In this document: positions 2,270 through 56,472 of the stretch, piece by piece
Numbering within the stretch: position 1 is the first letter of the stretch
Layout: the number at the start of each line of letters is the position of its first letter
Source of the DNA: a phage
Sequence record: PX104378.1
Strand: one strand, 5' to 3'
Length of the DNA stretch: 64,000 nt
Made by a program: the position numbers and the translations under genes
Notes under the pieces: generated by a model
The model's database searches: none
What the model was told of the DNA's origin: nothing
What the model saw: only the letters and a program-made list of their open reading frames with translations

Positions 2270-3409
2270 ATGACACAAGAGATAGAATTACGCAATACTG
2301 GAATTAAGTTTGCGCATTTCGACGAAGACTCTGCGACATTTACCAGCATTTCAGAAAATAACTCTGTAATGTATAAACTTGAGGTTAGAGGATCTAATGC
2401 GGATTCTACCAAACCAGCAAGGATTAGATTTAATGGAGTGGAGATCGTTGGCACTGGCTATGAAAATGGCCTAAATTTTAAAGTTCTTACTCCAACTGGA
2501 CAATTACACGAAGAAAAGGTATTCTATGGTCGCGGTGCTGTTTTGGCAATGCGTGATTATCTTTCTTTGCTGAAAGGTGATTATATCATTGCGATGGCAA
2601 CGCATGGAGAATTGTTTGCAGATCCGGTAAGTGATGATGTATTCTCTAAGCTGGGATCTGTATCATTCCCGAATCACATTTTGTTACAGCAAATGCCTCG
2701 TGTATCATATGCAGCAATTTATTCTACGAAAATGGGTAAAATTGTTTGTGAGGGTATGCAAGCGACCCACGGGGAAGGGCAAGATTCATCTATACAAATT
2801 GAGAAAGTCTATGATACTATAGATGATCTTGCTATAACAGGAACACCACAACGATTTTTAGATTATCCGGTTGAGTATGTTAGCGAAGATGCCGAACATT
2901 TCGAGCTAATACAATGGCCTCATGATGAGATCAGCGCACCACTTGAAGATTTTAACATAAAGACAGGTGACAAACTATCAATATCTTTTGAATTGTTCCG
3001 TGATAGTGCCGCAGCCGCAGCCAACGTAACAGCGCGTTTCTATCACAACTACTTCACCGATGGACAATATAAAACTGGTGTTCGATACAATGCCAGCAAA
3101 AAAGATCAATGGGAAAAGTTTGAAGCCGTCTATACCGTACCGGAAGGAGTTGATAGTGTTACCACTGGTTGCGTTAGATATCCAACCAACTCAAATGAAG
3201 GTATTGTTAAAGTTAGAAACATACTAATAACGCCGATCAGTGGAGTTGTCAAAACGACTGGTCCTACTTCCTTTGGTGTTAACGGTGTTAGAACAACTCA
3301 CATTCAGGATAACGGTGATTTTACTAACCCTGTAATGAGTCTTCTTAAACTACCCAGAGACAATAAACATATCACATCCAACAACTTTAAAGAGTTCGAT
3401 GTTGATTAA
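2270..3409 (+). CDS. 35: Long tail fibre hinge protein gp35
   Basis: 379 aa (T4 gp35 372 aa); position between 34 and 36; followed by hairpin+T-run terminator. Confidence 0.55.
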   Translation: MTQEIELRNTGIKFAHFDEDSATFTSISENNSVMYKLEVRGSNADSTKPARIRFNGVEIVGTGYENGLNFKVLTPTGQLHEEKVFYGRGAVLAMRDYLSLLKGDYIIAMATHGELFADPVSDDVFSKLGSVSFPNHILLQQMPRVSYAAIYSTKMGKIVCEGMQATHGEGQDSSIQIEKVYDTIDDLAITGTPQRFLDYPVEYVSEDAEHFELIQWPHDEISAPLEDFNIKTGDKLSISFELFRDSAAAAANVTARFYHNYFTDGQYKTGVRYNASKKDQWEKFEAVYTVPEGVDSVTTGCVRYPTNSNEGIVKVRNILITPISGVVKTTGPTSFGVNGVRTTHIQDNGDFTNPVMSLLKLPRDNKHITSNNFKEFDVD

Positions 3410-3419
3410 CATTTTTAAC

Positions 3420-3450
3420 AAGCCGATCCATGTGGTCGGCTTTATTTTTA
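3420..3450 (+). terminator. Rho-independent terminator after gene 35
   Basis: AAGCCGA-tccatgtgg-TCGGCTT hairpin followed by TATTTTTAT. Confidence 0.65.
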
Positions 3451-3569
3451 TACAGTTGGTTAAAATGTAACCAAAACGAAGAAAGATCTTTAGAATATAG
3501 AAAATTTGTTTCGGTTAAAAATTAGTCAGTGCCTCCGGCACGTCGCGAAGCGATATTTTGTTAACATTC

Positions 3570-3577
3570 TATAAATA
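3570..3577 (+). promoter_or_regulatory. T4-type late promoter (TATAAATA) upstream of gene 36
   Basis: Exact TATAAATA ~35 nt upstream of the gene 36 ATG. Confidence 0.6.
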
Positions 3578-3610
3578 CTCGGAACTATAACTAATTTTTG
3601 AGGTTACTTT

Positions 3611-5101
3611 ATGGCAGATTTGAAACATGGATCTACTGTAGGTGGATCTCCCATTTGGACGCAAGGAAACTTGACGATCCAGCCAGCGGGGGACCAGCTT
3701 TTCTACAAAGGTCATAAAATCTATACCGCTTTTGATAGACCTTCGGCTACCGATTTTGATGCTGTTAGTGCATCCGAAGGTGGCACATTTCAAAAGCAAG
3801 TTCATTTCGAGGAAGGTTTAAGCGTAGGTAGCGCATCGGCTGGAGAAACCAAAAAGAACGGTATCTTTAAAGGCCAGAGCGATGCCGCTAATTTTGACGG
3901 CGTAAGCTGGGGTTTGCATTCATGGAAGTCAATCGGCTTTGTTAATGCCCGTGATGGCGTTATAATGGCGTATATTGACACCACAACGGGCGAATTTAAG
4001 TCTAAAGGGACTATCGAAGGGACAACCATTAAAGACACTGGTCAACGCGTCTATAGCCCTGTTAATAAACCAACGAATAATGATTTGGATTTAGTTTCCC
4101 GTCGCGGTGATACTCTCACAGGAACATATAATTTAAACACTGTCACTGTTAAACTATCGGTTGATTCGAAATTAATTGCAAGGGAACGTGATTTAATTAA
4201 TTTTGATGCGACTAAGATCTATTATGGTAACGTTCTTGACACGTTGGTCTTCCGAAGTAAAGATGAGCCTACCATTTTTGTTAATGGCAAAGAAGGTCGT
4301 TTTTATCACACCAACAATAAACCAACTAAAGCCGATGTTGGACTAGGCAATGTCACCAATGATGCACAGGTTAAACGTGCTGGTGATATTATGGAAGGTA
4401 ACTTGCAAGCGCCTAGAATGTTGGCGACAAACGATCCTGCTGGTCCTAATGAATTGGTTCGTTTGAGCTACTTTGAGAAAAAATCAATGGTAGCAAATCC
4501 AACAATCATTGGAAACGTTGATTGGAACACTCTTATTAATCGCGGTATCTATCGTGTGGAAAATGCTGGATCAGGTACTAATAAACCGTCTGATAGCTAT
4601 TATAACGGCGTTTTGATGGTATATCGCCCAGAAGATGCGGTCGGTACTCGTCGAATTGTTCAGGTTTATTATCCTGAATCTATTGACCATCCGATGTGCT
4701 GGCGTTCGTGTTCTAATGAATCATGGACTGCATGGAACTATGTAGATCACCGTAAATTAGCCGATATTCGCTATGTTAACGTAACTGGCGATACCATGAC
4801 AGGACCGTTAACTGTTCCTGCTGCAAATGGCGTTAGAACAGCTAAAACTAACTATAACGGGGATAACTGTTATGCGGCGTTAAGCGGTGCTGATGGCACT
4901 GCTATGATTCACCGCATTAGTGATATTAAAGGGACCGAAAAGCTGGGGATCACCCACGACTCAAAGGTCGTGTTTTTCCGTTCTAGAAACAATACTCAAA
5001 CCGTGGACCGCTATCAGCTTTATCATGAAGGCAATAAACCTACTCCGGCTGATGTTGGAGCAGTTCCACTTAATGCGGTGATTGATTTTGGTACTTTCTA
5101 A
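3611..5101 (+). CDS. 36: Long tail fibre distal connector gp36
   Basis: N-terminus MADLKHGSTVGGSPIWTQGN matches T4 gp36 N-terminus; TATAAATA late promoter and GAGG RBS upstream; KPTxADVGA fibre motifs. Confidence 0.7.
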   Translation: MADLKHGSTVGGSPIWTQGNLTIQPAGDQLFYKGHKIYTAFDRPSATDFDAVSASEGGTFQKQVHFEEGLSVGSASAGETKKNGIFKGQSDAANFDGVSWGLHSWKSIGFVNARDGVIMAYIDTTTGEFKSKGTIEGTTIKDTGQRVYSPVNKPTNNDLDLVSRRGDTLTGTYNLNTVTVKLSVDSKLIARERDLINFDATKIYYGNVLDTLVFRSKDEPTIFVNGKEGRFYHTNNKPTKADVGLGNVTNDAQVKRAGDIMEGNLQAPRMLATNDPAGPNELVRLSYFEKKSMVANPTIIGNVDWNTLINRGIYRVENAGSGTNKPSDSYYNGVLMVYRPEDAVGTRRIVQVYYPESIDHPMCWRSCSNESWTAWNYVDHRKLADIRYVNVTGDTMTGPLTVPAANGVRTAKTNYNGDNCYAALSGADGTAMIHRISDIKGTEKLGITHDSKVVFFRSRNNTQTVDRYQLYHEGNKPTPADVGAVPLNAVIDFGTF

Positions 5102-5105
5102 TTTT

Positions 5106-5130
5106 AGCGGGGATTATCTCCCCGCTTTTC
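5106..5130 (+). terminator. Rho-independent terminator after gene 36
   Basis: AGCGGGGA-ttatc-TCCCCGCT followed by TTTTC. Confidence 0.6.
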
Positions 5131-5171
5131 TAAATAATATTATTCTAATAACCGTTTAAGGATTTTATAAA

Positions 5172-7940
5172 ATGGCAGATTTAAGCAGAATCCAATTTAA
5201 ACGCACTAGCACTAAAGGTCGTCGACCTGATGCTGGTACGATGAATCCGGGTGAGTTGGCGATCAACTTAGCCGACCAATATTTGCTTACTAAAAACGAC
5301 TCAGGTGCTATTATCAATTTAAGTTGTCCTCCGGTGTATGACCGCGATGTTACAATGGCTGGTAAAGTTAAAGGTAATAATTATATCTTAAGTAAAACCG
5401 CTAACTATCTGGAAGATCAGACAGCGCGAGATCTTAACTACTTTGGTGCTTTCCGTACCAATGGTCTTGATGGTTTTCTAGAACTAACGCTAAACGTTCC
5501 TCATTCTTCTGGTGTTCAGCATGGTCGAGGATTTACTTTCCAGTATGGTCACACTGGATCGCGAGTAGAAACCTATGGCTATAATAGAGAAGGTCAAAAA
5601 GCATTCAGCTATAAAATGTATCACGAAGGTGATAAACCAACTCCAGGAGAATTGAACGTTTATAGCAAACAAGAAGTAGATAGAATGTTTGTTAAGAACG
5701 TTAAACTTGCTACAGTTCCTGGTGATACAGTTGAAGGCTATTTTAAATTAGCAACTGCAATGATTCCACAAAATGGTCGTAGTGTATTTTTCCGTATTCA
5801 TGGTGGTAACGGATATAACGTTACTGCATACGATCAAGTTGATATTGTAGAAATTGTTATTCGCAGTGGAAATAATCGCCCTAAAGGTGTTAACGTTATT
5901 GCATATCGCCGAAATACAAACAAATCATTTGATGTTTTGGCTGTTAATACTTCTGGTGATAACTATGATATCTATGTGAAATATCAGCGTTACACTGATA
6001 ACGTTATTGTTGAATTTGGTAAAAGTGTTGATGTTAATCTGGTAGTTCATGACGTTCCAGATTTTGTTGCTGAACGTCCTGCTGGTGATAATGTTATTGG
6101 CGGTCGCGCGGTAACTCTTTTCAACACCGAAAATAAACGTGGTGTGTTGAGTTTTGACGATAACACACAAAATAGCTATGATATTGTTCACTTGAGTAAT
6201 GATAAAGGTACTGGACGAAAATATATTCGTAAATTCCGTAGCAACTATAATGAAATGATCTGGCATGAGACTGTTCAAGGTTCCAGTTATCGTCTGGCTA
6301 CTGGTAGCACTGATGCTCAGGAAATTATGACTATTGAATCTAGTAGCTCAATTGCTGGAACTCATAAAGGTAATATTATTTCTGGTCGTATGCTGTTAAA
6401 TGGCGGATCTAATGCCATTACACTACGCCGACCTGCTGGTCAATCTAATCATATTGCGTTTCAAGATAATCGTACTGGAGATATTACCCGTCAAGGATGG
6501 ATCGGTTATGCAAACGCCGATACTGACGTTTTTGAATGGTATAGTGATGTAGGTGGCAGTTCTATTCGTCAACATATCGACGGACAGATCGAATTTCAGA
6601 CAGGTAACATGAAGCGAGTTTATACCAACGGTCAATTCATTTCTTTATATGCTGATGGCTTCCGTACTGTATATGGTAACTATGGATCATGGTGGCGAAA
6701 TGACGGTAGTAACGTTTATCTGATGAGCACAAAATCAGGCGACGCTATGGGTCCGTGGAATACCTTTAGGCCGTTCATATACAGTCTCGCCAATGGAAAC
6801 GTTACTCTAGGTGGTAGCGATGCTGGCAATCATTTAATGCGTCTCAATAATGAAAATCGTCAAGTAGAAATAAATGCAACAACACATTTAGGGTCTCGAT
6901 TATATTGGGAACGTAGCGAAGGATCGGCATCTAGATTTTTTATTAAGAATTGGGGTAATGGAACTTCTCGCGCTCAAGTGTGGGAACTTGCTGACGAGAC
7001 AGGTTATCATGTATATTCTCAGCGAAACGACGCGGGTGTTCTTCAATTCCGTACTGCTGGTAATTTTGAGACTGGTGGTGATGCTCAAGTAAACGGGACT
7101 TTACGTGTCACCAATGTTCTTCGAACAGATAACCAAATTCAGATTTATCGCGATAACAACAAAGAACTCTGGTTTAAGGATGCTAATGGTACTAACCGTG
7201 GTGTTATCTGGGGTGATAGCACAGGTCAAATGCGCATTCGAAACTATAACAGCGGAGAATTTGACCATGTTTTCCAGACTGGTATGATTCGCTTAGAACG
7301 TGGGTATGCAAACGGTAGCGACCGTGGTTTGATTCGCGGAGAAGTACAAGGTGGTGCTTGGTCAGAATGGAAAACTCGCGCTGCTGGCTTATTGGTTGAC
7401 TGTCCAGCTGCTCAAACTTCCGCATATAACGTATGGAAAGCGACCAAATGGGGTTTAGACCACATCGCGGCAATGGGCGTTCATGTTCCTAGTGGTGTTA
7501 TTACTAATGCTATGGCACGTCTTCATATTCATACCACAAACTTTGACTTTAACGCATCTGGTGATTTCCAAGCTGGTCGCAATGGTAACTTTAACGATGT
7601 TTACATTCGCTCTGATGCTCGCCTGAAAATCAATAAGGAAGAGTATAAGGAGAATGCCACCGATAAAGTTAATCGCTTGACGGTATACACCTATGACAAG
7701 GTTAAATCTTTAACCGACCGTACTGTCATTGCTCATGAAGTCGGTATTATTGCTCAGGATCTTGAAAAAGAATTGCCGGAAGCAGTAACAACTTCTAAGG
7801 TCGGCGATCCTGATAAGCCAGAAGAGATCTTAACAATTTCTAACTCTGCTGTCAACGCTCTTTTAATTAAGGCGTTTCAGGAAATGAGCGAAGAATTGAA
7901 AGTCGTTAAAGCTGAACTAGCGGAACTTAAAAAGAATTAA
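5172..7940 (+). CDS. 37: Distal long tail fibre gp37 with C-terminal intramolecular chaperone (S74-type) domain
   Basis: N-terminus MADLSRIQFKR..GELAINL matches T4 gp37; C-terminal ~110 aa carry the SDxxxK autoproteolysis motif (YIRSDARLKINKEEY) typical of endosialidase/T5 pb1 chaperone domains. Confidence 0.8.
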   Translation: MADLSRIQFKRTSTKGRRPDAGTMNPGELAINLADQYLLTKNDSGAIINLSCPPVYDRDVTMAGKVKGNNYILSKTANYLEDQTARDLNYFGAFRTNGLDGFLELTLNVPHSSGVQHGRGFTFQYGHTGSRVETYGYNREGQKAFSYKMYHEGDKPTPGELNVYSKQEVDRMFVKNVKLATVPGDTVEGYFKLATAMIPQNGRSVFFRIHGGNGYNVTAYDQVDIVEIVIRSGNNRPKGVNVIAYRRNTNKSFDVLAVNTSGDNYDIYVKYQRYTDNVIVEFGKSVDVNLVVHDVPDFVAERPAGDNVIGGRAVTLFNTENKRGVLSFDDNTQNSYDIVHLSNDKGTGRKYIRKFRSNYNEMIWHETVQGSSYRLATGSTDAQEIMTIESSSSIAGTHKGNIISGRMLLNGGSNAITLRRPAGQSNHIAFQDNRTGDITRQGWIGYANADTDVFEWYSDVGGSSIRQHIDGQIEFQTGNMKRVYTNGQFISLYADGFRTVYGNYGSWWRNDGSNVYLMSTKSGDAMGPWNTFRPFIYSLANGNVTLGGSDAGNHLMRLNNENRQVEINATTHLGSRLYWERSEGSASRFFIKNWGNGTSRAQVWELADETGYHVYSQRNDAGVLQFRTAGNFETGGDAQVNGTLRVTNVLRTDNQIQIYRDNNKELWFKDANGTNRGVIWGDSTGQMRIRNYNSGEFDHVFQTGMIRLERGYANGSDRGLIRGEVQGGAWSEWKTRAAGLLVDCPAAQTSAYNVWKATKWGLDHIAAMGVHVPSGVITNAMARLHIHTTNFDFNASGDFQAGRNGNFNDVYIRSDARLKINKEEYKENATDKVNRLTVYTYDKVKSLTDRTVIAHEVGIIAQDLEKELPEAVTTSKVGDPDKPEEILTISNSAVNALLIKAFQEMSEELKVVKAELAELKKN

Positions 7941-25455: not shown

Positions 25456-26210
25456 TATAAACCTACCTTCGCTTTCATCAATTCAATCCACGACGCATCA
25501 ATCGGAAGCCCGTATTTCACGCGTTCTTTTTGTGCTGGCGTTAAGTTCTCATACTTAGAAAGAGATTCAATCAAAACGCTGGTATATTTTAGCACGATTT
25601 CGGTATTGTTTGCAATAGCCTTGAGTTTTTCCTCTTTCTTGTTGATTTCGCTAAGGGCTTGCTTGAGATCTGCAATTTTCTGATAACGTTCTTCCATACG
25701 GAAGAGAGTATTTTTAATCGCTCGCTCGGCTGCCTCTGCTTTCTCCGGTTCGTTGTGCTTTTTGTGGCGCTCGATTGCTAATTTCTTTTCTTCGATTGCC
25801 ATTTCCTGATTTTTGATGCGATTCTCGTTAAGTTCGATCCACTCGATGTACTTTGCACGTAGGGCGATCTCATCATCAGAAAGTTTACCGTTAGTTCCTA
25901 GTTCCTGGATCTCTTTAAGAGATTCGATAGTGTGATTGCCACGGAAAGAATTGTATTTCAGTTTAACCGGAATTACATTGCCATCAACATATCCCAGATT
26001 GCAATCAATGCGCTCTAAGGAGAGTCCGTCATCACCTTCACCGAAAGCCTCACCTGAATATGCGCAATGAGTCTGACGGTAAATGTTACGCACAGTGACT
26101 AAGCTCATAGAGAAGTCTTTGTTGCGACGTGAAGCGCCAGCCATGATAGAGTTCAGACGGAAAACAACCAGCGCCAATTCTTCGTTAGATTTAAAAGCAA
26201 ACAGTTTCAT
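25455..26210 (-). CDS. Hypothetical protein with C-terminal coiled coil (position of T4 srd)
   Basis: 251 aa; AGGAGAATCAATT-ATG with conserved 5'UTR cassette and promoter upstream. Assignment by position only. Confidence 0.5.
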   Translation of the reverse strand: MKLFAFKSNEELALVVFRLNSIMAGASRRNKDFSMSLVTVRNIYRQTHCAYSGEAFGEGDDGLSLERIDCNLGYVDGNVIPVKLKYNSFRGNHTIESLKEIQELGTNGKLSDDEIALRAKYIEWIELNENRIKNQEMAIEEKKLAIERHKKHNEPEKAEAAERAIKNTLFRMEERYQKIADLKQALSEINKKEEKLKAIANNTEIVLKYTSVLIESLSKYENLTPAQKERVKYGLPIDASWIELMKAKVGL

Positions 26211-26237
26211 AATTGATTCTCCTTAGTTGGTATGTGT

Positions 26238-29332: not shown

Positions 29333-29968
29333 TCAAGCGAACGTAGAAAGCAAATGTTTTGTTTCTTTCAGTTGTCGTTCAAGATCTTTGCGTTTCTCTT
29401 TAAGTTGCATTTTAGCATTGTTTCGCTGTTTTTCAACATCTTTATCGATGTGCTTAGTCCAATTATCAATATCAGAATAAGTTGGCATACCCAATTCTAA
29501 ACCTAATGCGGTTGGATACAGGGTAACAGTCCATAAACCGCTAATCTTCTTAAATAGGTCATGGTGTAGTGTACTACCTACATCTTCCGGTGTCAACTCT
29601 TTTTCTTCTTTCAGTGGTGGGATCTCGTCATATGGTTCCAGTGCATTTACTTTAATATCAGATACCTCATCAAAGAATCCGCGTACATCCGCAGGAAATA
29701 CACAAGCAATTTCCCAACCGTGATCACGCAGAGAAGTAATATTTTTCACTCCCCCACCATGTGTGATGATTGATGTGACATTGCCATCAAGGTCCACCGA
29801 ATTTACGAGAAATGGCTTATCGTCTGTCAGATCATTATAAAACTGTGCTTCGGCTGTAGTCATCTCCAGAAACAGATCTCGGATCGGACGACCATCAGGT
29901 GCGTTACCTTCCTTGAGAGTATAAAAGCGACTTACGATCCATTTTGGCGGTAAAGCATTAGCGATCAT
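29333..29968 (-). CDS. Hypothetical protein
   Basis: 211-aa ORF between 41 and 61; C-terminal K/E-rich coiled coil. Confidence 0.5.
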   Translation of the reverse strand: MIANALPPKWIVSRFYTLKEGNAPDGRPIRDLFLEMTTAEAQFYNDLTDDKPFLVNSVDLDGNVTSIITHGGGVKNITSLRDHGWEIACVFPADVRGFFDEVSDIKVNALEPYDEIPPLKEEKELTPEDVGSTLHHDLFKKISGLWTVTLYPTALGLELGMPTYSDIDNWTKHIDKDVEKQRNNAKMQLKEKRKDLERQLKETKHLLSTFA

Positions 29969-45456: not shown

Positions 45457-46926
45457 CTATTCCCCATTGCCATTATACTTTCTTTGCTTAGTTATCCACA
45501 CTCTAACCATCTCTACTGATTCACCGTCAGACGGATCAAGAGTTTTTCCTTTTTTCTTCATGCGGTACTTAAATCCGTTAAATCTTGCATTCTCTTGCTC
45601 GTTAAAGTCGAACATCTTTTTAAATGATTTTCGCCCTTTACGCTCACCACATTCTAGCGGAATCATTCGGTCTGTTATTACATTGGCATTAGGTAGAAAC
45701 GTTTTTAGATAATCTACCAACGCCCAATCAGGAACATATAGATTAACATTCTCCTTGCTCTCGTTGTCTCTCAGGTTACAACGCAAACATAATTGAAATG
45801 CTGGTTCCAGATAATCAGACACATGACGCGCTTTCAAAAACTCATTTGTCGGGAGATCACAACTATTAGCAAGACCTTTTAAAATATCAATCTCCCATCG
45901 TTGAGGGTTAAAGCTGAACATCACCGCAACATTTTTATGATGAATGTAAGAGTTAAGACCATAAGACCCGTAAGGTATCCGCTCACCAATACCATTTGTA
46001 CACGCTTCACGGTCCCGATTCACGGTATAAATGAAGTCATCACCACATTCATTTTTAACCATATCAACAAGACGTTCAAAGGTATTGTTTGTTTCTGACT
46101 GGTGACGCGACCAGCGTTCGGAGTCCGTCATAAGGATGATATTAACTCTATCTGTATTTTTATACTCTTTGAAATATAGTCTGGATTCTAGCGCACTCGG
46201 AACAAAATCGCAATTTGCATAGTATCGTAGATACTTCCCGCTATATGTATCAAAGAGATTTGCACATGCTATCGTAACCTTTTTAAAGTCTCCCCACGTA
46301 CCGTGTTTGTTATCGTTCAAGAAAACAATTTTCGACCCATTCTTCCGGTGTCCTTCGTTATGTTTTACCATAACGTTGATTTTCTTCTCTAATAACGCCT
46401 CATAAAGCCCTCTAAGAGAAGAATCGATCATATCAGTACCATCCTTTGCACTTTCTATCTTTTCTTTGATAGCGGCCTTCTCAGAGTCTTTTAGAACTAG
46501 GTTCTGTAGGCATTCCGATTCGTCGGCGATTGGTTCGCAATGCTTCGTGATAAGTTCAAGATTAGACTTAAACGGATACTCATTAAATTCAACCAGTTGA
46601 GGAACTTCATCAATGTAAAGAGCATATTCACTAAACATTTTTGAACGCTCCATATTAGATAACGCTGTATGTGTGATGAATATCACATCAGCACCATCTT
46701 TAACTGATTGCATTATCGACGCTTGCACTGTCTTAAGGCTTCTTAGTCTGGTGCTATCAATCAAGACAGCACGACCGCCCATTCTTTTAAACTTATTGTA
46801 AGATTGTTCACTTAAAACACGAGATGGCGAAGCAATAACCGCTTTTTCTTTTGTCTCTAGGACGTGGGAAAGTATAGCATCAGTTTTCCCCGCCGCTGGC
46901 AATGCGATTAATGTTTCAATCTTCAT
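45457..46926 (-). CDS. P-loop NTPase of unknown function
   Basis: 489 aa; N-terminal Walker A-like ALPAAGKTD, SF2 motif-Ia-like ASPSRVL, Walker B-like LYIDEV; large C-terminal region without recognised motifs. Confidence 0.6.
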   Translation of the reverse strand: MKIETLIALPAAGKTDAILSHVLETKEKAVIASPSRVLSEQSYNKFKRMGGRAVLIDSTRLRSLKTVQASIMQSVKDGADVIFITHTALSNMERSKMFSEYALYIDEVPQLVEFNEYPFKSNLELITKHCEPIADESECLQNLVLKDSEKAAIKEKIESAKDGTDMIDSSLRGLYEALLEKKINVMVKHNEGHRKNGSKIVFLNDNKHGTWGDFKKVTIACANLFDTYSGKYLRYYANCDFVPSALESRLYFKEYKNTDRVNIILMTDSERWSRHQSETNNTFERLVDMVKNECGDDFIYTVNRDREACTNGIGERIPYGSYGLNSYIHHKNVAVMFSFNPQRWEIDILKGLANSCDLPTNEFLKARHVSDYLEPAFQLCLRCNLRDNESKENVNLYVPDWALVDYLKTFLPNANVITDRMIPLECGERKGRKSFKKMFDFNEQENARFNGFKYRMKKKGKTLDPSDGESVEMVRVWITKQRKYNGNGE

Positions 46927-47234: not shown

Positions 47235-47393
47235 TTACTTAATGATACTGACTTTACCAGATCCGTGACAATGAGCGCAACACCCATCACCACGCAATCC
47301 TGTTCCGTTACAGTGTTTACACTTCTTCAACGGTAAAGTCATTATAGCAAATAAAGCAATAATGAACACCGAAACTAAATTCTCAATAATCAT
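47235..47393 (-). CDS. 52-aa membrane-anchored protein with two CxxCxGxG zinc-finger repeats
   Basis: Not in track. ATG preceded by GAGGG; MIIENLVSVFIIALFAIMTLPLKKCKHCNGTGLRGDGCCAHCHGSGKVSIIK. Confidence 0.5.
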   Translation of the reverse strand: MIIENLVSVFIIALFAIMTLPLKKCKHCNGTGLRGDGCCAHCHGSGKVSIIK

Positions 47394-47652
47394 AAATCGC
47401 CCTCAGTTCTTTATAGCCTCCAATGTGCTCGTTGTCAATGAATATCTGGGGGTATACAAACCGGAGGCTCTTTGAGTTTAGCCTCCCCGCCAGTTCTTCA
47501 ATCATATCACGGTCGGGAATAATGTCAACCCCGACCTGCTTGAATACTGGTTTAAGTGTATACGGAATACCCAGATCATCCAGTAGCTTCATTGCACTAA
47601 TACAACCATAACAATGATAAGCCTCTTTCGGTATACCGTATATCTCGATCAT
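47383..47652 (-). CDS. nrdH: Glutaredoxin-like protein (NrdH-like)
   Basis: 89 aa; CxxC active site CYGC near N-terminus; glutaredoxin motif VYPQIFIDNEHIGGYKEL; adjacent to nrd genes. Confidence 0.7.
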   Translation of the reverse strand: MIEIYGIPKEAYHCYGCISAMKLLDDLGIPYTLKPVFKQVGVDIIPDRDMIEELAGRLNSKSLRFVYPQIFIDNEHIGGYKELRAIYDY

Positions 47653-48146
47653 TTCTCAGCCTTTAATCTTTCTAGTTCTTCTTCCAGTTCCTTGATCCGT
47701 TGGTCACGTTCAAAGTCACGCTGTAACTTAGTGGCGAATACTCGTTTAAACTGATTGTAATCATCGATTTTAAACACTTCTTCTTCGCCATAGCGACGCA
47801 CAGAAACTTCGTAGTTGTTGAAAAATTGTTCCAACATTGCATCAGTAGTCAGTTCTGACGACACCACTTTAAAATAACGTTCTTCTGATTGCAAAAACCA
47901 GTTGTGCGCGTATTCCCGTACATCATCAACATCTCGACAGGTGTATGTTTTTCCATCAATTTCAATCGCAGAAACATATTCGATATCTGACGCAATTTTT
48001 TCAAAAGCGATAACTTTAAATGTACGGTCACCGATAAAGTCTGCTATTGCATCATTTGCAACACTGGTTGCAAAGGCTTTCCGCGCTCGCTCGTTTTTCC
48101 ACTGATAGGTCATACCAACAACAAACATATTACCATCAACAAACAT
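47649..48146 (-). CDS. Paralog-family protein (WEVGKTY / DGxTY / ERxYF modules)
   Basis: Shares GMTYQWKNERARKAF, IDGKTYTCRDVDD, EERYFKVV and C-terminal coiled coil with neighbours; start set to ATG adjacent to upstream stop. Confidence 0.5.
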   Translation of the reverse strand: MFVDGNMFVVGMTYQWKNERARKAFATSVANDAIADFIGDRTFKVIAFEKIASDIEYVSAIEIDGKTYTCRDVDDVREYAHNWFLQSEERYFKVVSSELTTDAMLEQFFNNYEVSVRRYGEEEVFKIDDYNQFKRVFATKLQRDFERDQRIKELEEELERLKAEK

Positions 48147-48147
48147 A

Positions 48148-48981
48148 TTACCAACCTCGCTCTTTACCAATCAAAAATTCAACTTCACGACGTTTAATGT
48201 CTTCTTGAAGGTCTTTAATCTTCTGGCGATCTTGCATGATTTCATCCATCTTGTCAAGTGCCGCAATGAAATCATCGAAACGTTCAAAGGTTTTACCTTC
48301 ATTTGCTTCGCCAAATTTAACCATTGTCAGGCCATAACGACTACTAAAAAGACGCTTCAACTGTCCAACGACCTTAGAATCATCGTTCACCTTTTCTTCT
48401 GGTTCTTTCACGGTTTCAACTTCACGAAAATATTTTCGTTCAAGCCCAACAAACCACACAGCATCAACATCATCATCAACACCCGCCGAATGAGGATTAA
48501 ATGTTCCACAAACATTATCATTATTGATGTCGATCATAGTAACGAAACCAACAGAATCAACGGAAGATACCGTAAAAGTCTCATCTCCTATCCAATCAGC
48601 AATTTTACGGTTGATATTAGAACAGTGAGAAAACGTCACTTTTGCGTTTACATCCTTCCAAATATAAGTTTTACCAACTTCCCATTTAGGAGGAACTTCT
48701 TCAACTTCACGAAAGAATTTTATATCAAATGGACTAAACAAATATGTTGACGTCCAAATGTCTTTTCCTGTAGCCGTTTTCGCCGTATGATAAACACCGT
48801 CTAGCTCTATTACATTAATCCAACCATCACCTTCGTTCTCGATGATGGTAAATGGCTTGTCACCAATAGCTGCACTGATATCGCTGTTAAGTGGAGAAAG
48901 AACACCTTCTCCGTTAGTAATAAACTCAGTTTTAGCGTTTTCATCTTTCCAAGTGTAAGTTTTACCAATTTCCCATTTCAT
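48148..48981 (-). CDS. Paralog-family protein (internally duplicated)
   Basis: MKWEIGKTYTWKDENAKTEF and internal repeat WEVGKTYIWKDVNAKVTF; FFREVE / YFREVE motifs. Confidence 0.55.
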   Translation of the reverse strand: MKWEIGKTYTWKDENAKTEFITNGEGVLSPLNSDISAAIGDKPFTIIENEGDGWINVIELDGVYHTAKTATGKDIWTSTYLFSPFDIKFFREVEEVPPKWEVGKTYIWKDVNAKVTFSHCSNINRKIADWIGDETFTVSSVDSVGFVTMIDINNDNVCGTFNPHSAGVDDDVDAVWFVGLERKYFREVETVKEPEEKVNDDSKVVGQLKRLFSSRYGLTMVKFGEANEGKTFERFDDFIAALDKMDEIMQDRQKIKDLQEDIKRREVEFLIGKERGW

Positions 48982-48993
48982 AATATATTCCCC

Positions 48994-49461
48994 TTAACCG
49001 ATTTTATCAAGTTCGTTTAATGCTTTCTCAGCTTCCTGTATAGCTTGCACTCTTTCCGGCATTTTGTCAAGAAAATCTTTCAACTCTTCAAAACTGGAGA
49101 TATGACGCAAGGCGTTAGCACCGATAGCCGCATGTGATTTGCATTCAAAGCGGATTTTATAATTATCCATCGCCAACTTGAGAAGATCAATTAATTTAGA
49201 TTCTTCTGGAATAATAATTTCTTCAAATCTGCTACGGTCATGATCCAGAAACCAACAATATAGACCTACATCGGTTGAACTCATATAAGTTCCATCATGA
49301 AGATAAACAGACCGCACGTATCCTTTTTTCGCATCAACCGACGCAACTTTAAACGGTAATCTCAGATATTTCAAATAATCAACATCATACCATTTTAAAA
49401 AATGGTCTGCATCTTTTACATCTTTCCAGGCATAGGTCTTACCAACTTCCCATTTCAACAT
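48994..49461 (-). CDS. Paralog-family protein
   Basis: MLKWEVGKTYAWKDVKDADHF; helical C-terminal module. Confidence 0.55.
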   Translation of the reverse strand: MLKWEVGKTYAWKDVKDADHFLKWYDVDYLKYLRLPFKVASVDAKKGYVRSVYLHDGTYMSSTDVGLYCWFLDHDRSRFEEIIIPEESKLIDLLKLAMDNYKIRFECKSHAAIGANALRHISSFEELKDFLDKMPERVQAIQEAEKALNELDKIG

Positions 49462-49465
49462 AATA

Positions 49466-50020
49466 TCACCTTTCGTTTTTGATACGTGATTCTAATTGGA
49501 TCATACGGTCGCGCGTTTGTTTGTATTCTCGGATAGCACCGATCCGGCTAGGCATACCATCCAGTACGCTCTTAATACCTTCTAGGGTAGTGATTTTAGC
49601 AATGCTATTATGTAACCCCATCTTATCGATCAACTGAATGTCGTAGGCTTCCATAAGCAGACCCAGACGTTCTAATGTTAAATCCGGTTCTTGTTCTTTA
49701 TCTTCTTCCTTTTCTTCCGGTTCTGGGATTTCTTTGTCAATAGTAGCTTCGGTAAAGAAACGACGCTCACCAGCCCAAAACCACACACCGTAACAGTTAA
49801 TAGGGGATTCTTTTAAAGTCATGGAGTCGAAATCACTACCAATAATAGTAATTTCTCTAACATCACCATCGTCATCAATGTCTTCTACCTTAAACGGGCG
49901 ACCAGCCAACAAGTCCACAATACATCCGTTAATACCCGACGAAAATTTAGTCAGTTCAGCTTTCGACGCTTCGCATTTAATATTGTAGATTTTACCTACT
50001 TCCCATTCCATAATAATCAC
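49466..50020 (-). CDS. Paralog-family protein
   Basis: MEWEVGKIYNIKCEASKAELTKF; ERRFFTEA; helical C-terminal module. Confidence 0.55.
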   Translation of the reverse strand: MIIMEWEVGKIYNIKCEASKAELTKFSSGINGCIVDLLAGRPFKVEDIDDDGDVREITIIGSDFDSMTLKESPINCYGVWFWAGERRFFTEATIDKEIPEPEEKEEDKEQEPDLTLERLGLLMEAYDIQLIDKMGLHNSIAKITTLEGIKSVLDGMPSRIGAIREYKQTRDRMIQLESRIKNER

Positions 50021-50021
50021 C

Positions 50022-50531
50022 TCAAATAATTTTCACTGGAATACTATTAACAATCTTGTATTGTACTTGATTGTCAGACCCCCGCCACGGCTTCTTCGTT
50101 GGCATATCTTTAATATAACGCCCATCGATGAACATGTCAACCGATTCTACAATTTTTCTTTGCTCATCATTCAATTGGTCAAGGGTATAACCAGACCATA
50201 GCCAAATATCTTTATTTGGCATCCATGATTTTACTTCATCGATGATCCGCTGTACACCCTTTAAATTGCGTTTATACAATGGATCGCCACCTAAGAATGT
50301 TAGCCCCTGAATAAAATCAGGTCTAAGCAGATCCAGAATCAACCCCATTGTATCATCGGTGAATGGTTCCCCGTTCTTAGGATTGAGTAGGCTAGCATTA
50401 AAGCAACCATCACATGCGTGTGAACATCCGGTAACGTAAAGGGAGACTCTCACTCCCTCACCGTTAACCATATCACAATCTTTAATATCGGCATAGCGTA
50501 GTTTGCCGTATGTATCAGAACTCATATTCAA
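50022..50531 (-). CDS. nrdG: Anaerobic ribonucleotide reductase activating protein NrdG (radical SAM)
   Basis: 169 aa; cysteine cluster CSHACDGC. Confidence 0.85.
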   Translation of the reverse strand: MNMSSDTYGKLRYADIKDCDMVNGEGVRVSLYVTGCSHACDGCFNASLLNPKNGEPFTDDTMGLILDLLRPDFIQGLTFLGGDPLYKRNLKGVQRIIDEVKSWMPNKDIWLWSGYTLDQLNDEQRKIVESVDMFIDGRYIKDMPTKKPWRGSDNQVQYKIVNSIPVKII

Positions 50532-50742: not shown

Positions 50743-51291
50743 TTATTTTAAATTTTTTCGAATGTATTCAGACCATTCCTTCCCTGTCAGTTCGGTCCCA
50801 TTCTGGAAACTGAAATATTCATACGGCATCGAGTCAAGATAAAACAGGATCATACATCGCGCCATATAATACCAATCACGATTAAAGTAAACTACGTTAT
50901 CACCAGTACCATCAGCACCTTTATCATAACCATCGCGGGTACGGGCGACCCATTGAATGGTATCATTTTTCTCACGGATAGTAACAGGTTCCCAATATCC
51001 AGCACATCCAGCATGACCACACGAACAAGTAAGGAAATATTGACCTTTTGCTTTGTTGTCATCCCATTCACGATGAATTGGTTTGATTTCGTGAAACATT
51101 GCCAAACAATCATGATTATGCAACACTGGCTTACCATCAATCAATGCATGGAATGTATACAAACGACCCGTAGACAAATAGCTATCCTCACGCTCAACCA
51201 GTTCAATAGCAATCTTTTTAGCTCGTTCTTTGTGTCGTTGTGCTTTACGCTTACGGTTTAATGATTTCATATTCACCTCACACATTATCAA
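50743..51291 (-). CDS. Hypothetical Cys/His-rich protein
   Basis: 182 aa; HNHDC...CSCGHAGCAGYW cluster suggests metal binding. Confidence 0.5.
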   Translation of the reverse strand: MIMCEVNMKSLNRKRKAQRHKERAKKIAIELVEREDSYLSTGRLYTFHALIDGKPVLHNHDCLAMFHEIKPIHREWDDNKAKGQYFLTCSCGHAGCAGYWEPVTIREKNDTIQWVARTRDGYDKGADGTGDNVVYFNRDWYYMARCMILFYLDSMPYEYFSFQNGTELTGKEWSEYIRKNLK

Positions 51292-51827
51292 AGGTCGCGA
51301 TATAGTACATTATGAAAATGAGAACTTGCATTACCAATATTGTAGATAATAAATTCTTCATCCGGCGCTTGCGCTACAAATTGAGTATGAGCAACCGCCA
51401 CAACCTTAAAAATACGATCCGTGATCTTGTGTTTAATTTCTGCCCCTACTTCCATAGGAACATATTCATTTGTTTCTGTTTCAGTCGCAAAACAGCCATC
51501 TTCTTCATAAGCACGAACAAATCGGTCGCACTCAGTACGCTTAACAAATTCAAGAGTATACAATTCTCGTGAATTGTCGGTATAGACCAATACAGAATTA
51601 TTATGATAGCGAATCACATACAGGTTATTATCATCGTCAATTACGCAAAAGCTACGGATTCCTTCGCCTATACTCCAGCAGATATTAACCACGGTTCCTC
51701 TAATAAAAAAACTTTCCTTTAAATTAAAACTAGTCAATGTGCTAGCGTGCATTTTAACAACAACACCATCGCCAATTTCCAGTTTACGAAGTTTAACTTC
51801 TTTGCTCAGTACACAAAACATCATCAT
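51288..51827 (-). CDS. Hypothetical protein
   Basis: 179-aa ORF between nrdD and nrdG. Confidence 0.5.
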   Translation of the reverse strand: MMMFCVLSKEVKLRKLEIGDGVVVKMHASTLTSFNLKESFFIRGTVVNICWSIGEGIRSFCVIDDDNNLYVIRYHNNSVLVYTDNSRELYTLEFVKRTECDRFVRAYEEDGCFATETETNEYVPMEVGAEIKHKITDRIFKVVAVAHTQFVAQAPDEEFIIYNIGNASSHFHNVLYRDL

Positions 51828-51927
51828 GTTGTCCTCTCGTTGTTTTCGATGTGAGCATTATACATTAGCCAATCATGTTGTCAACACCCCAAAACGAAAA
51901 AGCCGACCCTTTCGGATCGGCTGAAAA

Positions 51928-53834: not shown

Positions 53835-54329
53835 TTATTTTACCAGTTCTGCTAATTCTTTTTCCGCCGCTTCCAGTTCAGCTTTCAGTTGTTTAATCTC
53901 TTGTCGCTTCTTATTAGCGGCTTCCTGCTTACTATTTCGGATAACCTGATCTAGATATGAATCCCACTCATGAATATTTTTGATAATGTAACCGTCAACG
54001 TTCAGAACTTTAATATTAAGAACTTCTTCCAGCTTACTTAAAGAACGTTGTGTTTCGGGGAAGAAATAGTCATATTCACCTCGGTCAAACCAGTAGCGTA
54101 TGCCAGCTTTATCTAAACGACGATGCAATTCATCAAAATCTCTACCATCTTCGACGATGAGTTTGTCTACATCGCCATTACAGTTAACAGAGACTTTGAA
54201 TCTAATATTATCAACCCCACCAAAAACATCAATAAGGATAGTTCCTATCGTGTTATCCGCGCTTCCAGTATCCATAAAAGATTCTAGTTTTTCTTGATTA
54301 GTAACGTACCAAACATCTTGTTTCCACAT
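53835..54329 (-). CDS. Hypothetical protein with C-terminal coiled coil
   Basis: 164 aa; GAGGATTATATT-ATG; promoter cassette at ~54360-54387. Confidence 0.5.
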   Translation of the reverse strand: MWKQDVWYVTNQEKLESFMDTGSADNTIGTILIDVFGGVDNIRFKVSVNCNGDVDKLIVEDGRDFDELHRRLDKAGIRYWFDRGEYDYFFPETQRSLSKLEEVLNIKVLNVDGYIIKNIHEWDSYLDQVIRNSKQEAANKKRQEIKQLKAELEAAEKELAELVK

Positions 54330-54359: not shown

Positions 54360-54387
54360 ATTATAGCATACTCCCTTCGCATGTCAA
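54360..54387 (-). promoter_or_regulatory. Early promoter cassette with stem-loop (PeSL-like)
   Basis: TTGACA-16nt-TATAAT; GGGAGTAT..ATACTCCC inverted repeat encloses the -10. Confidence 0.55.
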
Positions 54388-55562
54388 GCACTAACTTTTT
54401 TCTTTACTGCTTTCACCTTCTGGCGAATTGCTCGAATCTCTTCGATCTCTTTTTCAGTCTCTTTAACAATTTCTTTGCGATTCTGAATATCTGTATCGAG
54501 ATTATCATCAAGTTTAGGCAGCATGTCAATCAAGAACTTTTTAAAGTCTTTCAGGTTTCTGATAACAGCACCTTCACCCATTACCGCCACCCCTACACCA
54601 TCCGGCAGATCGCCAAACAGTTTAACCAGTTCAGACAGATGATCATGATCTTCTAGTGCTTCTTCCGGTTCAGATGGCAGTTCAACAAAGTTATAACGTT
54701 CATCATTGCTGATCAGGTGATACCAGCAAAGCCCGAATGATTTCGGTGTATATTCTACACCATCAATTTCAACCGAGTCAACACTTCCATAATCATCTAC
54801 TTTAGTTACCTTAAATCCTTGTCCCAGCTTTTGAACAATTTCAACAACATGACTTGATACAGTTTCAGCGGTAAACCAATATGGCAAATTATGCTGATTT
54901 GGCTTGTAGCGTTCACCTACTTTAAATCTCTGACCAGCCGCTTGCATAGCATGAAATTGTTGTTTCGTGATTTCCGCGAAGTATTCAAATTCGCCACCAT
55001 CAAACACACAAGCCCATTGTTCACAAAAACGATCTGCCTTAACAGTTTCACCTTTCGCGGTGATCATGGTAGCCGACCCGTGAAATTCTTCTTCAACTAA
55101 AAAGCCATATTCGACAAAATCAACAAGTTTCATGGCTTCTTTGTGCTCTGGATCATGCTCTCCCCAGAATCGCTTAAATTCTTGCAAACCTTCCGGGGTA
55201 AACGAATAGCACTTACCTTTTTCAAAGTAAGTAGGCATTGCATCGTCTTTCTTGTTCATCGCTTCGTATGCCTCTTTTGAGATGCGTTTAAAGTATTTGC
55301 GCTCATTGTGCATAATCATAGTAGCCCAATAATCCACAATATCATTAGCGGAATAAACTACATCTCCAGCTTCAATAGTAATAACATGACCGTGGTCATC
55401 TTTTTCTAATACTTTAAAGCCCTTTTCTACGATTCCAGCAACCCGAATATGACCACGGCGCGAAGCATCGGTCAGAATAATTGAATAGCGAGAAAAGTCT
55501 AGAAACTCATCTTTACCGCCTTCACGGAATGCATAGTAATGCCCTTCAAAGAATTTAGCCAT
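54384..55562 (-). CDS. Paralog-family protein (GFKVL / NERKYFKRI modules)
   Basis: 392 aa; HNERKYFKRISKEAYEAM and IDGVEYTPKSFG shared with 55619..56203 and 56200..56472. Confidence 0.55.
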   Translation of the reverse strand: MAKFFEGHYYAFREGGKDEFLDFSRYSIILTDASRRGHIRVAGIVEKGFKVLEKDDHGHVITIEAGDVVYSANDIVDYWATMIMHNERKYFKRISKEAYEAMNKKDDAMPTYFEKGKCYSFTPEGLQEFKRFWGEHDPEHKEAMKLVDFVEYGFLVEEEFHGSATMITAKGETVKADRFCEQWACVFDGGEFEYFAEITKQQFHAMQAAGQRFKVGERYKPNQHNLPYWFTAETVSSHVVEIVQKLGQGFKVTKVDDYGSVDSVEIDGVEYTPKSFGLCWYHLISNDERYNFVELPSEPEEALEDHDHLSELVKLFGDLPDGVGVAVMGEGAVIRNLKDFKKFLIDMLPKLDDNLDTDIQNRKEIVKETEKEIEEIRAIRQKVKAVKKKVSA

Positions 55563-55593: not shown

Positions 55594-55622
55594 ATCTTAC
55601 TACTCCCGTTTCATCATGTCAA
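55594..55622 (-). promoter_or_regulatory. Early promoter cassette with stem-loop (PeSL-like)
   Basis: TTGACA-17nt-TAAGAT; GGGAGTA..TACTCCC. Confidence 0.55.
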
Positions 55623-56203
55623 GCGTTAAATGACTTTTTAATCTCTTTCAGTTCTTCCACTTTCTCGGCGCTGAATTTAGCGTAGGTATCATGTCGAATA
55701 ATTTCACTTTCAAGAAAGGTTTCCAGTCGAGATCTATTTTCAATAAGGAACTCTTTCAGGTCTTCCGCGTTCTTGACAAAGATTTTATTGTCGGTAATGT
55801 CATCTTCAATCGCAAAGGAGATAGAGCGAACTTTACCAAACAAGTTAATCAGATCTTCCAGAGATTCTTCTTTCTTAACTGGTTTCATTTCTTCAAACTG
55901 CTTTTTAGTGATGCGTTTAAAGTATTTGCGCTCGTTTGCAGCAATCAGAACAGATGCACCTTCATACCCATGAGTTTCTACCAGATACACACGCCCCATC
56001 GCATCAACAGTGAGAACTTTAAAGCCGTTACAAAGCACGTCATACAAGAACTTATTATGTTGCGGACATCGTTTGATAAATTCTGCGGCTGTTTCTGCAC
56101 TACGGAAAGTATAGTAACGACCTCGTTCAAAAACAGCATCATTTGAAGACTTAGCCGGATACAATTTATACGTTTTCTGTACCATAATATAATCCTCTAT
56201 CAT
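55619..56203 (-). CDS. Paralog-family protein
   Basis: 194 aa; NGFKVLTVDAMGRVY, ANERKYFKRITKKQFEEM. Confidence 0.55.
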   Translation of the reverse strand: MIEDYIMVQKTYKLYPAKSSNDAVFERGRYYTFRSAETAAEFIKRCPQHNKFLYDVLCNGFKVLTVDAMGRVYLVETHGYEGASVLIAANERKYFKRITKKQFEEMKPVKKEESLEDLINLFGKVRSISFAIEDDITDNKIFVKNAEDLKEFLIENRSRLETFLESEIIRHDTYAKFSAEKVEELKEIKKSFNA

Positions 56204-56472
56204 TTCACTAATTGAACAGCACGGAACAGAATGCGCTCACACGGAAGCAGCATAAATTCCCAACGCGGATCAAAGTCTTTAGCGGTGTATGTTTTCCCAT
56301 CAACCGAGATTTCACTTACATAACCAACAGGTGACACTTTAAGAACAGTAAACCCATTCTTGATGACTTCGTAGGTATCTTTCACCCCTTCGTATTCATC
56401 ATCTAAGAAGTCTTTATGTGCTTGCTCAGATTTAAAAACATAGGCCACACCGGATTTAAACATCTTACGCAT
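56200..56472 (-). CDS. Paralog-family protein (single module)
   Basis: Track ORF trimmed to ATG after AAGGAGAATCAACA; NGFTVLKVSPVGYV, VDGKTYTAKDFD. Confidence 0.5.
   Translation of the reverse strand: MRKMFKSGVAYVFKSEQAHKDFLDDEYEGVKDTYEVIKNGFTVLKVSPVGYVSEISVDGKTYTAKDFDPRWEFMLLPCERILFRAVQLVK

Follow-up and report, generated by a model that had tools for sequence, protein, structure and literature searches.

What kind of proteins are encoded by the four genes that lie between nrdG and nrdH in an RB49-like phage, and why do several versions of them stand side by side? The locus belongs to a 64,000-nucleotide stretch of the phage sequence record PX104378.1, hereafter the window. An earlier note, made from the letters alone, had described the four genes (here g1 to g4) as a tandem array of paralogs and had assigned them no function. 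By profile comparison, g1-g4 are true paralogs of GoF, an early protein of T4, and belong to the GoF/Frd.2 group, and across related phages each gene joins a nearly constant C-terminal tail to an N-terminal barrel that occurs as discrete, deeply divergent alleles. Since the GoF family was already published in 2025, these genes are added members and not a new kind of protein; the expansion to nine genes, the tandem barrels, and the exchange of cassettes within genes on a frozen tail appear to be undescribed in PMC12152347 and PMC2839356.

A GoF-family array between nrdG and nrdH

The 47-51 kb stretch of the window has 92.9-97% identity to 59 GenBank phage records, all of them RB49-like T4-type coliphages (Krischvirus) and including JK32, phiS, RB49, and Phi1, and by this identity the window phage is itself a Krischvirus. 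The nrdH-nrdG interval is filled by four consecutive open reading frames (ORFs) on the minus strand, separated by gaps of 1-12 nt. They correspond to four RB49 ORFs, each labelled "hypothetical protein" and likewise located between nrdG and nrdH, and their arrangement is the same in every cultured relative examined. The genes, their parts, and a small duplication at the g3-g4 junction are as follows (HMM, hidden Markov model).

49466-50011, minus strand: g1, 181 aa, RB49 ORF051 (ORF, phrog_5347 at E 4e-61, N-module HMM match); N barrel 49739-50011, acidic linker 49685-49738 (DKEIPEPEEKEEDKEQEP), C module 49466-49684
48994-49461, minus strand: g2, 155 aa, RB49 ORF050; N barrel 49210-49461, C module 48994-49209
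48148-48981, minus strand: g3, 277 aa, RB49 ORF049 (two HMM domains, independent E-values 8e-39 and 5e-37); N barrel 1 48697-48981, N barrel 2 48412-48690, linker and C module 48148-48411
47649-48146, minus strand: g4, 165 aa, RB49 ORF048; N barrel 47856-48131, C module 47649-47855 with a coiled-coil-like terminal helix
48117-48152, minus strand: 18-bp tandem duplication over the g3 stop and g4 start, two copies of ggtaatatgtttgttgNt, exact but for one base

The ORFs, the N-module alignments, and the HMM bear out the tandem array of four paralogs, and the sequences confirm the N module as a shared unit of about 90 aa. Its alignment consensus reads xKWEVGKTYxWKD ... PFKV ... G.V..I.I.G ... WF...ER..F.EV, in which both motifs named in the earlier note can be recognized, the second as ER(K/R)(Y/F)F. 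The concern that these shared motifs might not be statistically significant is answered by shuffling: Smith-Waterman z scores are 7.6-22 in nine of the ten N-module pairs, with none of 500 shuffles reaching the real score, and the weakest pair, g2N-g4N, has a z of 3.8. The internal duplication lies in g3, where the N module occurs at residues 1-95 and again at 98-190, is recovered as two HMM domains, and gives a z of 22 between its two copies. Whole-protein BLAST among the four paralogs scores 40-47 bits for most pairs. All four proteins match phrog_5347 (E 1e-53 to 1e-66), which is not independent evidence because this PHROG was probably built from orthologs of g1-g4. The core of the idea of an old, diversifying, modular family therefore holds by BLAST, alignment, and shuffle z scores. 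A helical C module common to all four, also proposed at the outset, is confirmed only in part, and weakly by sequence: the z scores are 9.9 for g1C-g2C, 4.2 for g3C-g4C, 3.4 for g2C-g3C, and 2.4 for g2C-g4C.

All four genes have a Shine-Dalgarno sequence ahead of an ATG. The start of g1 is most likely the ATG at 50011 (MEWEVGK, with GAGGTGA before it) rather than the GTG at 50020, to judge from the sequence; AGGTGA precedes the ATG of g2, and the g4 start codon is the ATG at 48146, one base past the g3 stop. The 18-bp duplication at this junction lengthens the product by six residues (MFVDGN) and brings in a second ATG in frame, giving MFVDGN-MFVVG, and is found in phiS and some metagenomic orthologs while being absent from RB49 and JK32.

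GoF has been known genetically since the 1970s. The phage "LSm-like fold" family GoF/Frd.2/MotB.1, comprising three T4 genes, was defined by Kim et al. in 2025, in a paper whose main text mentions neither RB49 nor Krischvirus (PMC12152347). Its members are abundant, non-essential early proteins in T4, and GoF and MotB.1 migrate partly as dimers on gels (PMC12152347). Alignment of the window modules to T4 GoF with hhalign gave 96.5-96.8% probability (E 9e-10 to 2e-10) over the entire N domain, and an HMM built from the window modules alone recovers T4 GoF at E 2.8e-13. The corresponding hhalign values are 91.6% (E 8e-7) for T4 Frd.2 and, for MotB.1, a partial match of 27% over 43 columns, with an HMM E of 0.007. 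T4 GoF itself matches phrog_5347 (E 6.5e-7), and g1-g4 match the PHROGs 2980, 13003, and 622, annotated "goF mRNA metabolism modulator", more weakly than they match phrog_5347. Pfam and NCBIfam hold no family for any of g1-g4, a PDB sequence search returned coiled-coil noise only (E 0.013 or above), and a search of the literature for frd.2, motB.1, and ORF048-051 found nothing beyond PMC12152347.

The fold was predicted with AlphaFold2 (AF2). The g4 model, made from an alignment of 35 paralog and ortholog sequences, has a mean predicted local distance difference test (pLDDT) score of 85, with most barrel blocks at 92-96 and the interdomain stretch at 75-81. Its barrel strands lie at residues 12-16, 43-52, 55-63, 66-68, and 92-97, and its elements run in the order strand, two helices, three strands, variable loop, fifth strand, and linker, followed by a tail of helix, beta hairpin, and a 35-residue helix, which would be the common tail pattern of the array. 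The g3 model is weaker (mean 68), with the strand and helix order of the barrel repeated twice. In these models the N module is predicted to be a five-stranded SH3/LSm-like beta barrel with two inserted helices, matching the GoF fold published in 2025. The traits that mark the GoF family recur here: a bent five-stranded N-terminal sheet or barrel in the model of g4 and twice in that of g3; a flexible linker and distinct C domain, seen as acidic linkers in the sequence and a helix-hairpin-helix tail in the model; and FeoA-type SH3-like barrels and LSm proteins as structural neighbours.

Foldseek comparison of the model with the PDB gave nothing below E 0.6, and Sm structures only at E > 2. The BFVD search returned 53 predicted viral structures with E <= 1e-3, several of them from one phage; none of these proteins is characterised, and all belong to T4-like phages of enterobacteria and Aeromonas or to phAPEC8. 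Membership in the Sm/LSm/Hfq superfamily proper was rejected on the lack of a Pfam match at E <= 1 and on the helices between strands 1 and 2, and a FeoA or metal-regulator SH3-like domain was rejected for want of a Pfam FeoA profile match together with a metal- or FeoB-related context. Across the 12 barrels of the window, the invariant columns are all aromatic (Y, F, and F), and F, V, and G columns are nearly invariant. Judged from the alignment, these would be core positions and not a surface site, which fits a scaffold carrying variable binding surfaces.

Variable barrels and constant tails across Krischvirus genomes

The array was compared across nine Krischvirus genomes with the window as reference. 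For nrdH, nrdG, and the C modules the DNA is mostly 93-100% identical, although in some genomes the C end of g4 dips to 82-90%; in the barrels identity drops abruptly to 28-75%, with breakpoints at the module edges. At the protein level the C modules within a slot are 97-100% identical for g1, g2, and g3, and 84-100% for g4, whereas the barrel alleles are discrete and deeply divergent, with lowest identities of 41% for g3-N2, 45% for g2, 56% for g4, and 65% for g3-N1. The ratio of nonsynonymous to synonymous polymorphism (pN/pS) is 0.35-0.58 in the barrels, 0.02-0.14 in the C modules, and 0.04-0.06 in the flanks, and synonymous divergence is also higher in the barrels. This combination points to old alleles moved by recombination, and not to rapid local change alone. 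The five barrel slots hold ten allele classes with an incongruent distribution among the phages. The nearest alleles are those of the same slot, which indicates exchange between phages and rules out shuffling of barrel alleles between slots.

Metagenomic sequences extend this pattern. A 170-kb contig has other barrel alleles in all four genes on near-identical tails and a g3 with a single barrel; natural single-barrel g3 variants exist in P0075 and L015. Contig SRR11185258_147272 (L014 3501-4438) carries an in-frame chimera of the g1 barrel and the g3 tail, in which recombination at a shared DDD(G/V)D stretch has joined the barrel of g1 with the end of g3 barrel 2; g1C, g2, and g3-N1 are deleted and g4 is split by a frameshift. 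This variant may represent either an array in decay or an artefact of assembly. Separately, the g1 ortholog of phage ECD7 (L010 2596-3087) is frameshifted and has an unrelated C end, at a length of 163 aa.

Further family members, expression signals, and neighbouring genes

When the five array N modules were built into an HMM and all six frames of the window were scanned with it, the total rose to nine family genes with 12 barrels, compared with three genes in T4 (PMC12152347). The five genes outside the array contain seven barrels, and four of them form a second cluster at 53.8-56.5 kb.

53835-54329, minus strand: 164 aa, RB49 ORF057, one divergent N barrel and a coiled-coil C module (phrog_15067)
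54384-55562, minus strand: 392 aa, three N barrels (55275-55559, 54963-55232, 54675-54932) and a C module (5-module HMM E 3.5e-11, phrog_8944 E 2e-212)
55619-56203, minus strand: 188-194 aa, RB49 ORF059 "goF mRNA metabolism modulator", N barrel 55880-56137 and a C module (HMM, PHROG, RB49 annotation)
56200-56472, minus strand: 90 aa, RB49 ORF060, N barrel only (HMM E 4.5e-9, phrog_16115)
29333-29968, minus strand: 211 aa, RB49 "Dc2", N barrel 29657-29947 and a coiled-coil C module (HMM E 2.6e-6, phrog_16187)

The 392-aa gene is annotated in RB49 as frd.2 or "goF mRNA metabolism modulator", and two neighbours of the array are already labelled goF-like in RefSeq. The weakest member is the 164-aa gene, which the 5-module HMM finds at E 0.87 over the full profile; its RB49 ortholog is found by a 12-module HMM at E 5e-13, a match that is not independent because the window copy is one of the 12 modules. 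This second cluster behaves much as the array does; in the 164-aa gene, for instance, the barrel is 52-75% identical and the tail 87-98%. The Dc2 gene lies directly downstream of the gene 41 helicase and has a BFVD structural match, "Dc2 [ECD7]". An HMM of the four array C modules did no better than E 0.35 on second-cluster tails, which is not significant. The same HMM matched the ORF at 25458-26222 (minus strand), identified as srd by its position in RB49, at E 0.003 and 13 bits, a match that is not trusted and probably reflects coiled-coil composition.

No further clear member was found in six-frame ORFs of about 150 of the 164 kb of RB49, taken together with the genome part spanned by the window. 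In RB49, gene 39 is almost directly followed by dexA, and no goF-cef-motB-motB.1-motB.2 block is present (RB49 3205-5971); all its GoF-family genes therefore lie in the nrd/gene 41 region. Against 1.84 billion representative proteins, the 12-module profile found 91 clusters at E <= 1e-3. Thirteen of these were treated as spurious, being long proteins matched over short stretches only; of the five that were scanned, three were Ig-like or SpaA repeat proteins and two had no clear family. About a dozen of the remaining clusters carry two or three barrels. A word-indexed homolog search returned 131 matches, all to close Krischvirus relatives, and the 12-module alignment contains no conserved stretch of 7-10 columns.

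A consensus scan found sigma-70-type promoter matches (10-12 of 12 positions) ahead of the 164-aa, 392-aa, and 90-aa genes and after nrdD, and a further candidate lies upstream of g1. These candidates and the genes that flank the array are listed below.

50112-50140, minus strand: candidate sigma-70-type early promoter within the nrdG 3' end, about 100 nt upstream of g1 (TTGACA-17-TATATT, 11/12)
54387-54360, minus strand: candidate sigma-70 promoter ahead of the 164-aa gene (perfect 12/12)
56532-56504, minus strand: candidate sigma-70 promoter ahead of the 90-aa gene (11/12)
50022-50525, minus strand: nrdG, activase of the anaerobic ribonucleotide reductase, upstream flank (Fer4_12 E 2.4e-43, phrog_626)
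47383-47652, minus strand: nrdH-type glutaredoxin, downstream flank (Pfam Glutaredoxin E 6.9e-5, phrog_22, RB49 annotation)

The T4 late-promoter box, TATAAATA, does not occur in the array region, and the window holds one copy in 64 kb (position 3570, plus strand) where 5.9 are expected from shuffles; this scarcity fits a window that consists almost wholly of minus-strand early genes. A reading of g1-g4 as virion or late genes was rejected on the missing late box. Together with the promoter matches, this absence fits early expression, as for T4 GoF, and is a sequence-level indication and not proof.

The minus strand at 51857-51922, directly after nrdD, holds a terminator-like hairpin (9 bp, GC-rich) and, behind it, a perfect sigma-70 promoter match (12/12), an element resembling the PeSL promoter-terminator cassettes of RB49 and Phi1 (PMC2839356). 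Between nrdG and nrdD lie two conserved minus-strand ORFs, 50743-51291 (phrog_8242) and 51288-51827 (phrog_14838), neither of which matches Pfam; the second matches the barrel HMM at chance level only. Downstream of the array, at 45457-46926 (minus strand), is a conserved 489-aa ORF, for which a weak DEAD-helicase Pfam note exists in a related contig only.

Possible roles and comparison with known systems

The reading favoured here, in which confidence somewhat outweighs doubt, is that g1-g4 are tandem-duplicated, early, non-structural host-interaction proteins of the GoF/Frd.2 group, each joining a constant anchoring or dimerising tail to an exchangeable recognition barrel. Each protein would consist of one N barrel of about 90 aa (in g3, two), a short and often acidic linker, and a C module of about 70 aa in which a beta hairpin stands between a first helix and a long amphipathic one. 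The proteins would be made before replication from sigma-70-type promoters and would not be part of the virion. The nearly invariant C module may dimerise, as the long amphipathic helix and the gel behaviour of GoF suggest, or may dock onto a conserved partner, and the barrel would be the exchangeable recognition surface for a variable ligand. That ligand would most likely be a host factor of RNA metabolism or RNA itself, proposed because the GoF(D25Y) mutant stabilises mRNA; a host defence protein is also possible. The array would have arisen by tandem gene and domain duplication and would still be undergoing remodelling, as homologous recombination exchanges divergent barrel cassettes among Krischviruses that circulate together.

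Several observations weigh against this proposal. Wild-type T4 GoF is without an assigned function, RNA being stabilised only by the D25Y mutant, and AlphaFold 3 gave no confident GoF homodimers (PMC12152347). The similarity of g1C to g3C or g4C was not above chance in the 500-shuffle test, and the promoters are consensus matches only. Four of the five array barrels are acidic (net charge -4 to -8) and that of g2 is neutral, which argues against simple RNA binding. With pN/pS below 1 in the barrels, positive selection is not demonstrated, and relaxed constraint together with recombination could give much of the observed pattern. Finally, the natural contig from which most of the array is deleted suggests that the array is dispensable.

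Possible targets can be ranked, with a host RNA-metabolism target or RNA ahead of host defence proteins, followed by RNA polymerase and lastly by an accessory role for the nrd enzymes. A counter-defence or host-range array, in which the barrels act, with no part for RNA, as decoys or inhibitors of fast-evolving host proteins of immunity or restriction, seems a doubtful explanation that nevertheless has several features on its side: a hypervariable barrel on a frozen tail, a mosaic distribution of alleles, a plastic early region with PeSL-like promoter-terminator cassettes (PMC2839356), T4 homologs that are non-essential in the laboratory, and acidic barrels suited to protein binding or nucleic-acid mimicry. 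It is opposed by the pN/pS values, by searches of Pfam, NCBIfam, and PDB sequences that matched no known anti-defence family, and by the fact that the sole experimental phenotype in the family concerns mRNA stability. That phenotype, in turn, is the extended half-life of the gene 41 leader RNA seen with GoF(D25Y), the only GoF variant with a known effect (PMC12152347), and it invites the view that the barrels are direct RNA chaperones or stabilisers like Hfq/LSm, shielding phage transcripts from RNase E and other nucleases, with paralogs differing in RNA specificity. The LSm-like topology and the family member directly downstream of gene 41 agree with such a role. So do the residues aligned with two GoF mutations: K or R occupies the position of the suppressor G84R in g1, g3N1, g3N2, and g4, and F (g1) or W (g2) that of D25Y, so that the array proteins may be closer to the active mutant than to wild-type GoF. 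The alignment at D25 falls in a variable loop, however, and is uncertain, the barrels carry no Sm1/Sm2 motifs and no Pfam LSM/Hfq match, all but that of g2 are acidic, a hypervariable surface would be unusual for a general RNA binder, and wild-type GoF and MotB.1 had little effect in reporter assays (PMC12152347). Direct RNA chaperones are rather unlikely.

Two further explanations have less in their favour. Because goF was identified through its suppression of rho (nusD) restriction (PMC12152347), a Tudor/CarD-like barrel that binds RNA polymerase and alters termination would account for the suppression of rho mutants; this is improbable, given that reporter work shows a post-transcriptional effect and that GoF pull-downs recovered mainly GoF itself (PMC12152347). 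The position among nrdH, nrdG, and nrdD, which both family clusters flank, might suggest accessory factors of the anaerobic ribonucleotide reductase, yet this is very improbable and was rejected: the T4 homologs are located elsewhere, one window member adjoins gene 41, the natural deletion variant has retained the nrd genes after losing most of the array, and the barrels vary beside a nearly invariant nrdG and nrdH. A further reading, less likely than not, is that the locus is a cassette-exchange system for protein recognition domains, in which a frozen C-terminal anchor bears an SH3-like barrel that is exchanged whole for divergent Krischvirus alleles and multiplied to 12 copies per genome; the GoF family would then be a phage arms-race toolkit, for counter-defence or the capture of host factors, and not a housekeeping RNA chaperone.

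These results extend the GoF family beyond Tevenvirinae and demonstrate that one genome can hold nine family genes and twelve barrels. A GoF-family annotation can now replace the label "hypothetical protein" for four proteins of 59 GenBank phage records, among them the nine Krischvirus genomes compared here. The pattern of a constant tail with a swappable barrel points to the barrel surface as the probable specificity determinant and to the tail as a common handle, and the natural allele series of barrels makes the locus a useful handle on the old unsolved function of GoF.

Among known systems, T4 GoF (comC-alpha) is the closest in kind. It shares the N-terminal five-stranded barrel of about 90 aa with the motif order F/W-E-V-x-K-x-Y ... 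PFK ... G ... W ... E-x-x-F-F-x-E-V, an acidic linker, a short C domain, and a sigma-70-type promoter context. It differs in being a single gene between genes 39 and cef, whereas the RB49-type copies cluster around the nrd genes; the window C module is longer, with a long coiled-coil-like terminal helix, g3 has two barrels, and most window barrels already have K or R at the G84R suppressor position. T4 Frd.2 and MotB.1 share the predicted barrel, with one barrel per protein. Hfq and Sm/LSm proteins have the same bent five-stranded antiparallel sheet, whereas g1-g4 lack the Sm motifs and Pfam matches and carry their helices after strand 1 and not at the N terminus. Other comparable SH3-like barrels are those of FeoA, the C domains of IdeR and SloR, the Tudor domains of CarD and UvrD, and the KOW-like domain of EF-P.

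At the level of genome organization, the closest parallel is the PeSL shuffling described in RB49 and Phi1 by Arbiol et al. in 2010, in a paper that does not mention ORF048-051 (PMC2839356). The phages are the same, replacement blocks are likewise sharp-edged in genomes that are otherwise about 95% identical, and PeSL-like terminator-plus-promoter elements are present in the window region. The difference lies in what is exchanged, since PeSLs are intergenic, whereas the array swaps an intragenic barrel between conserved coding motifs.

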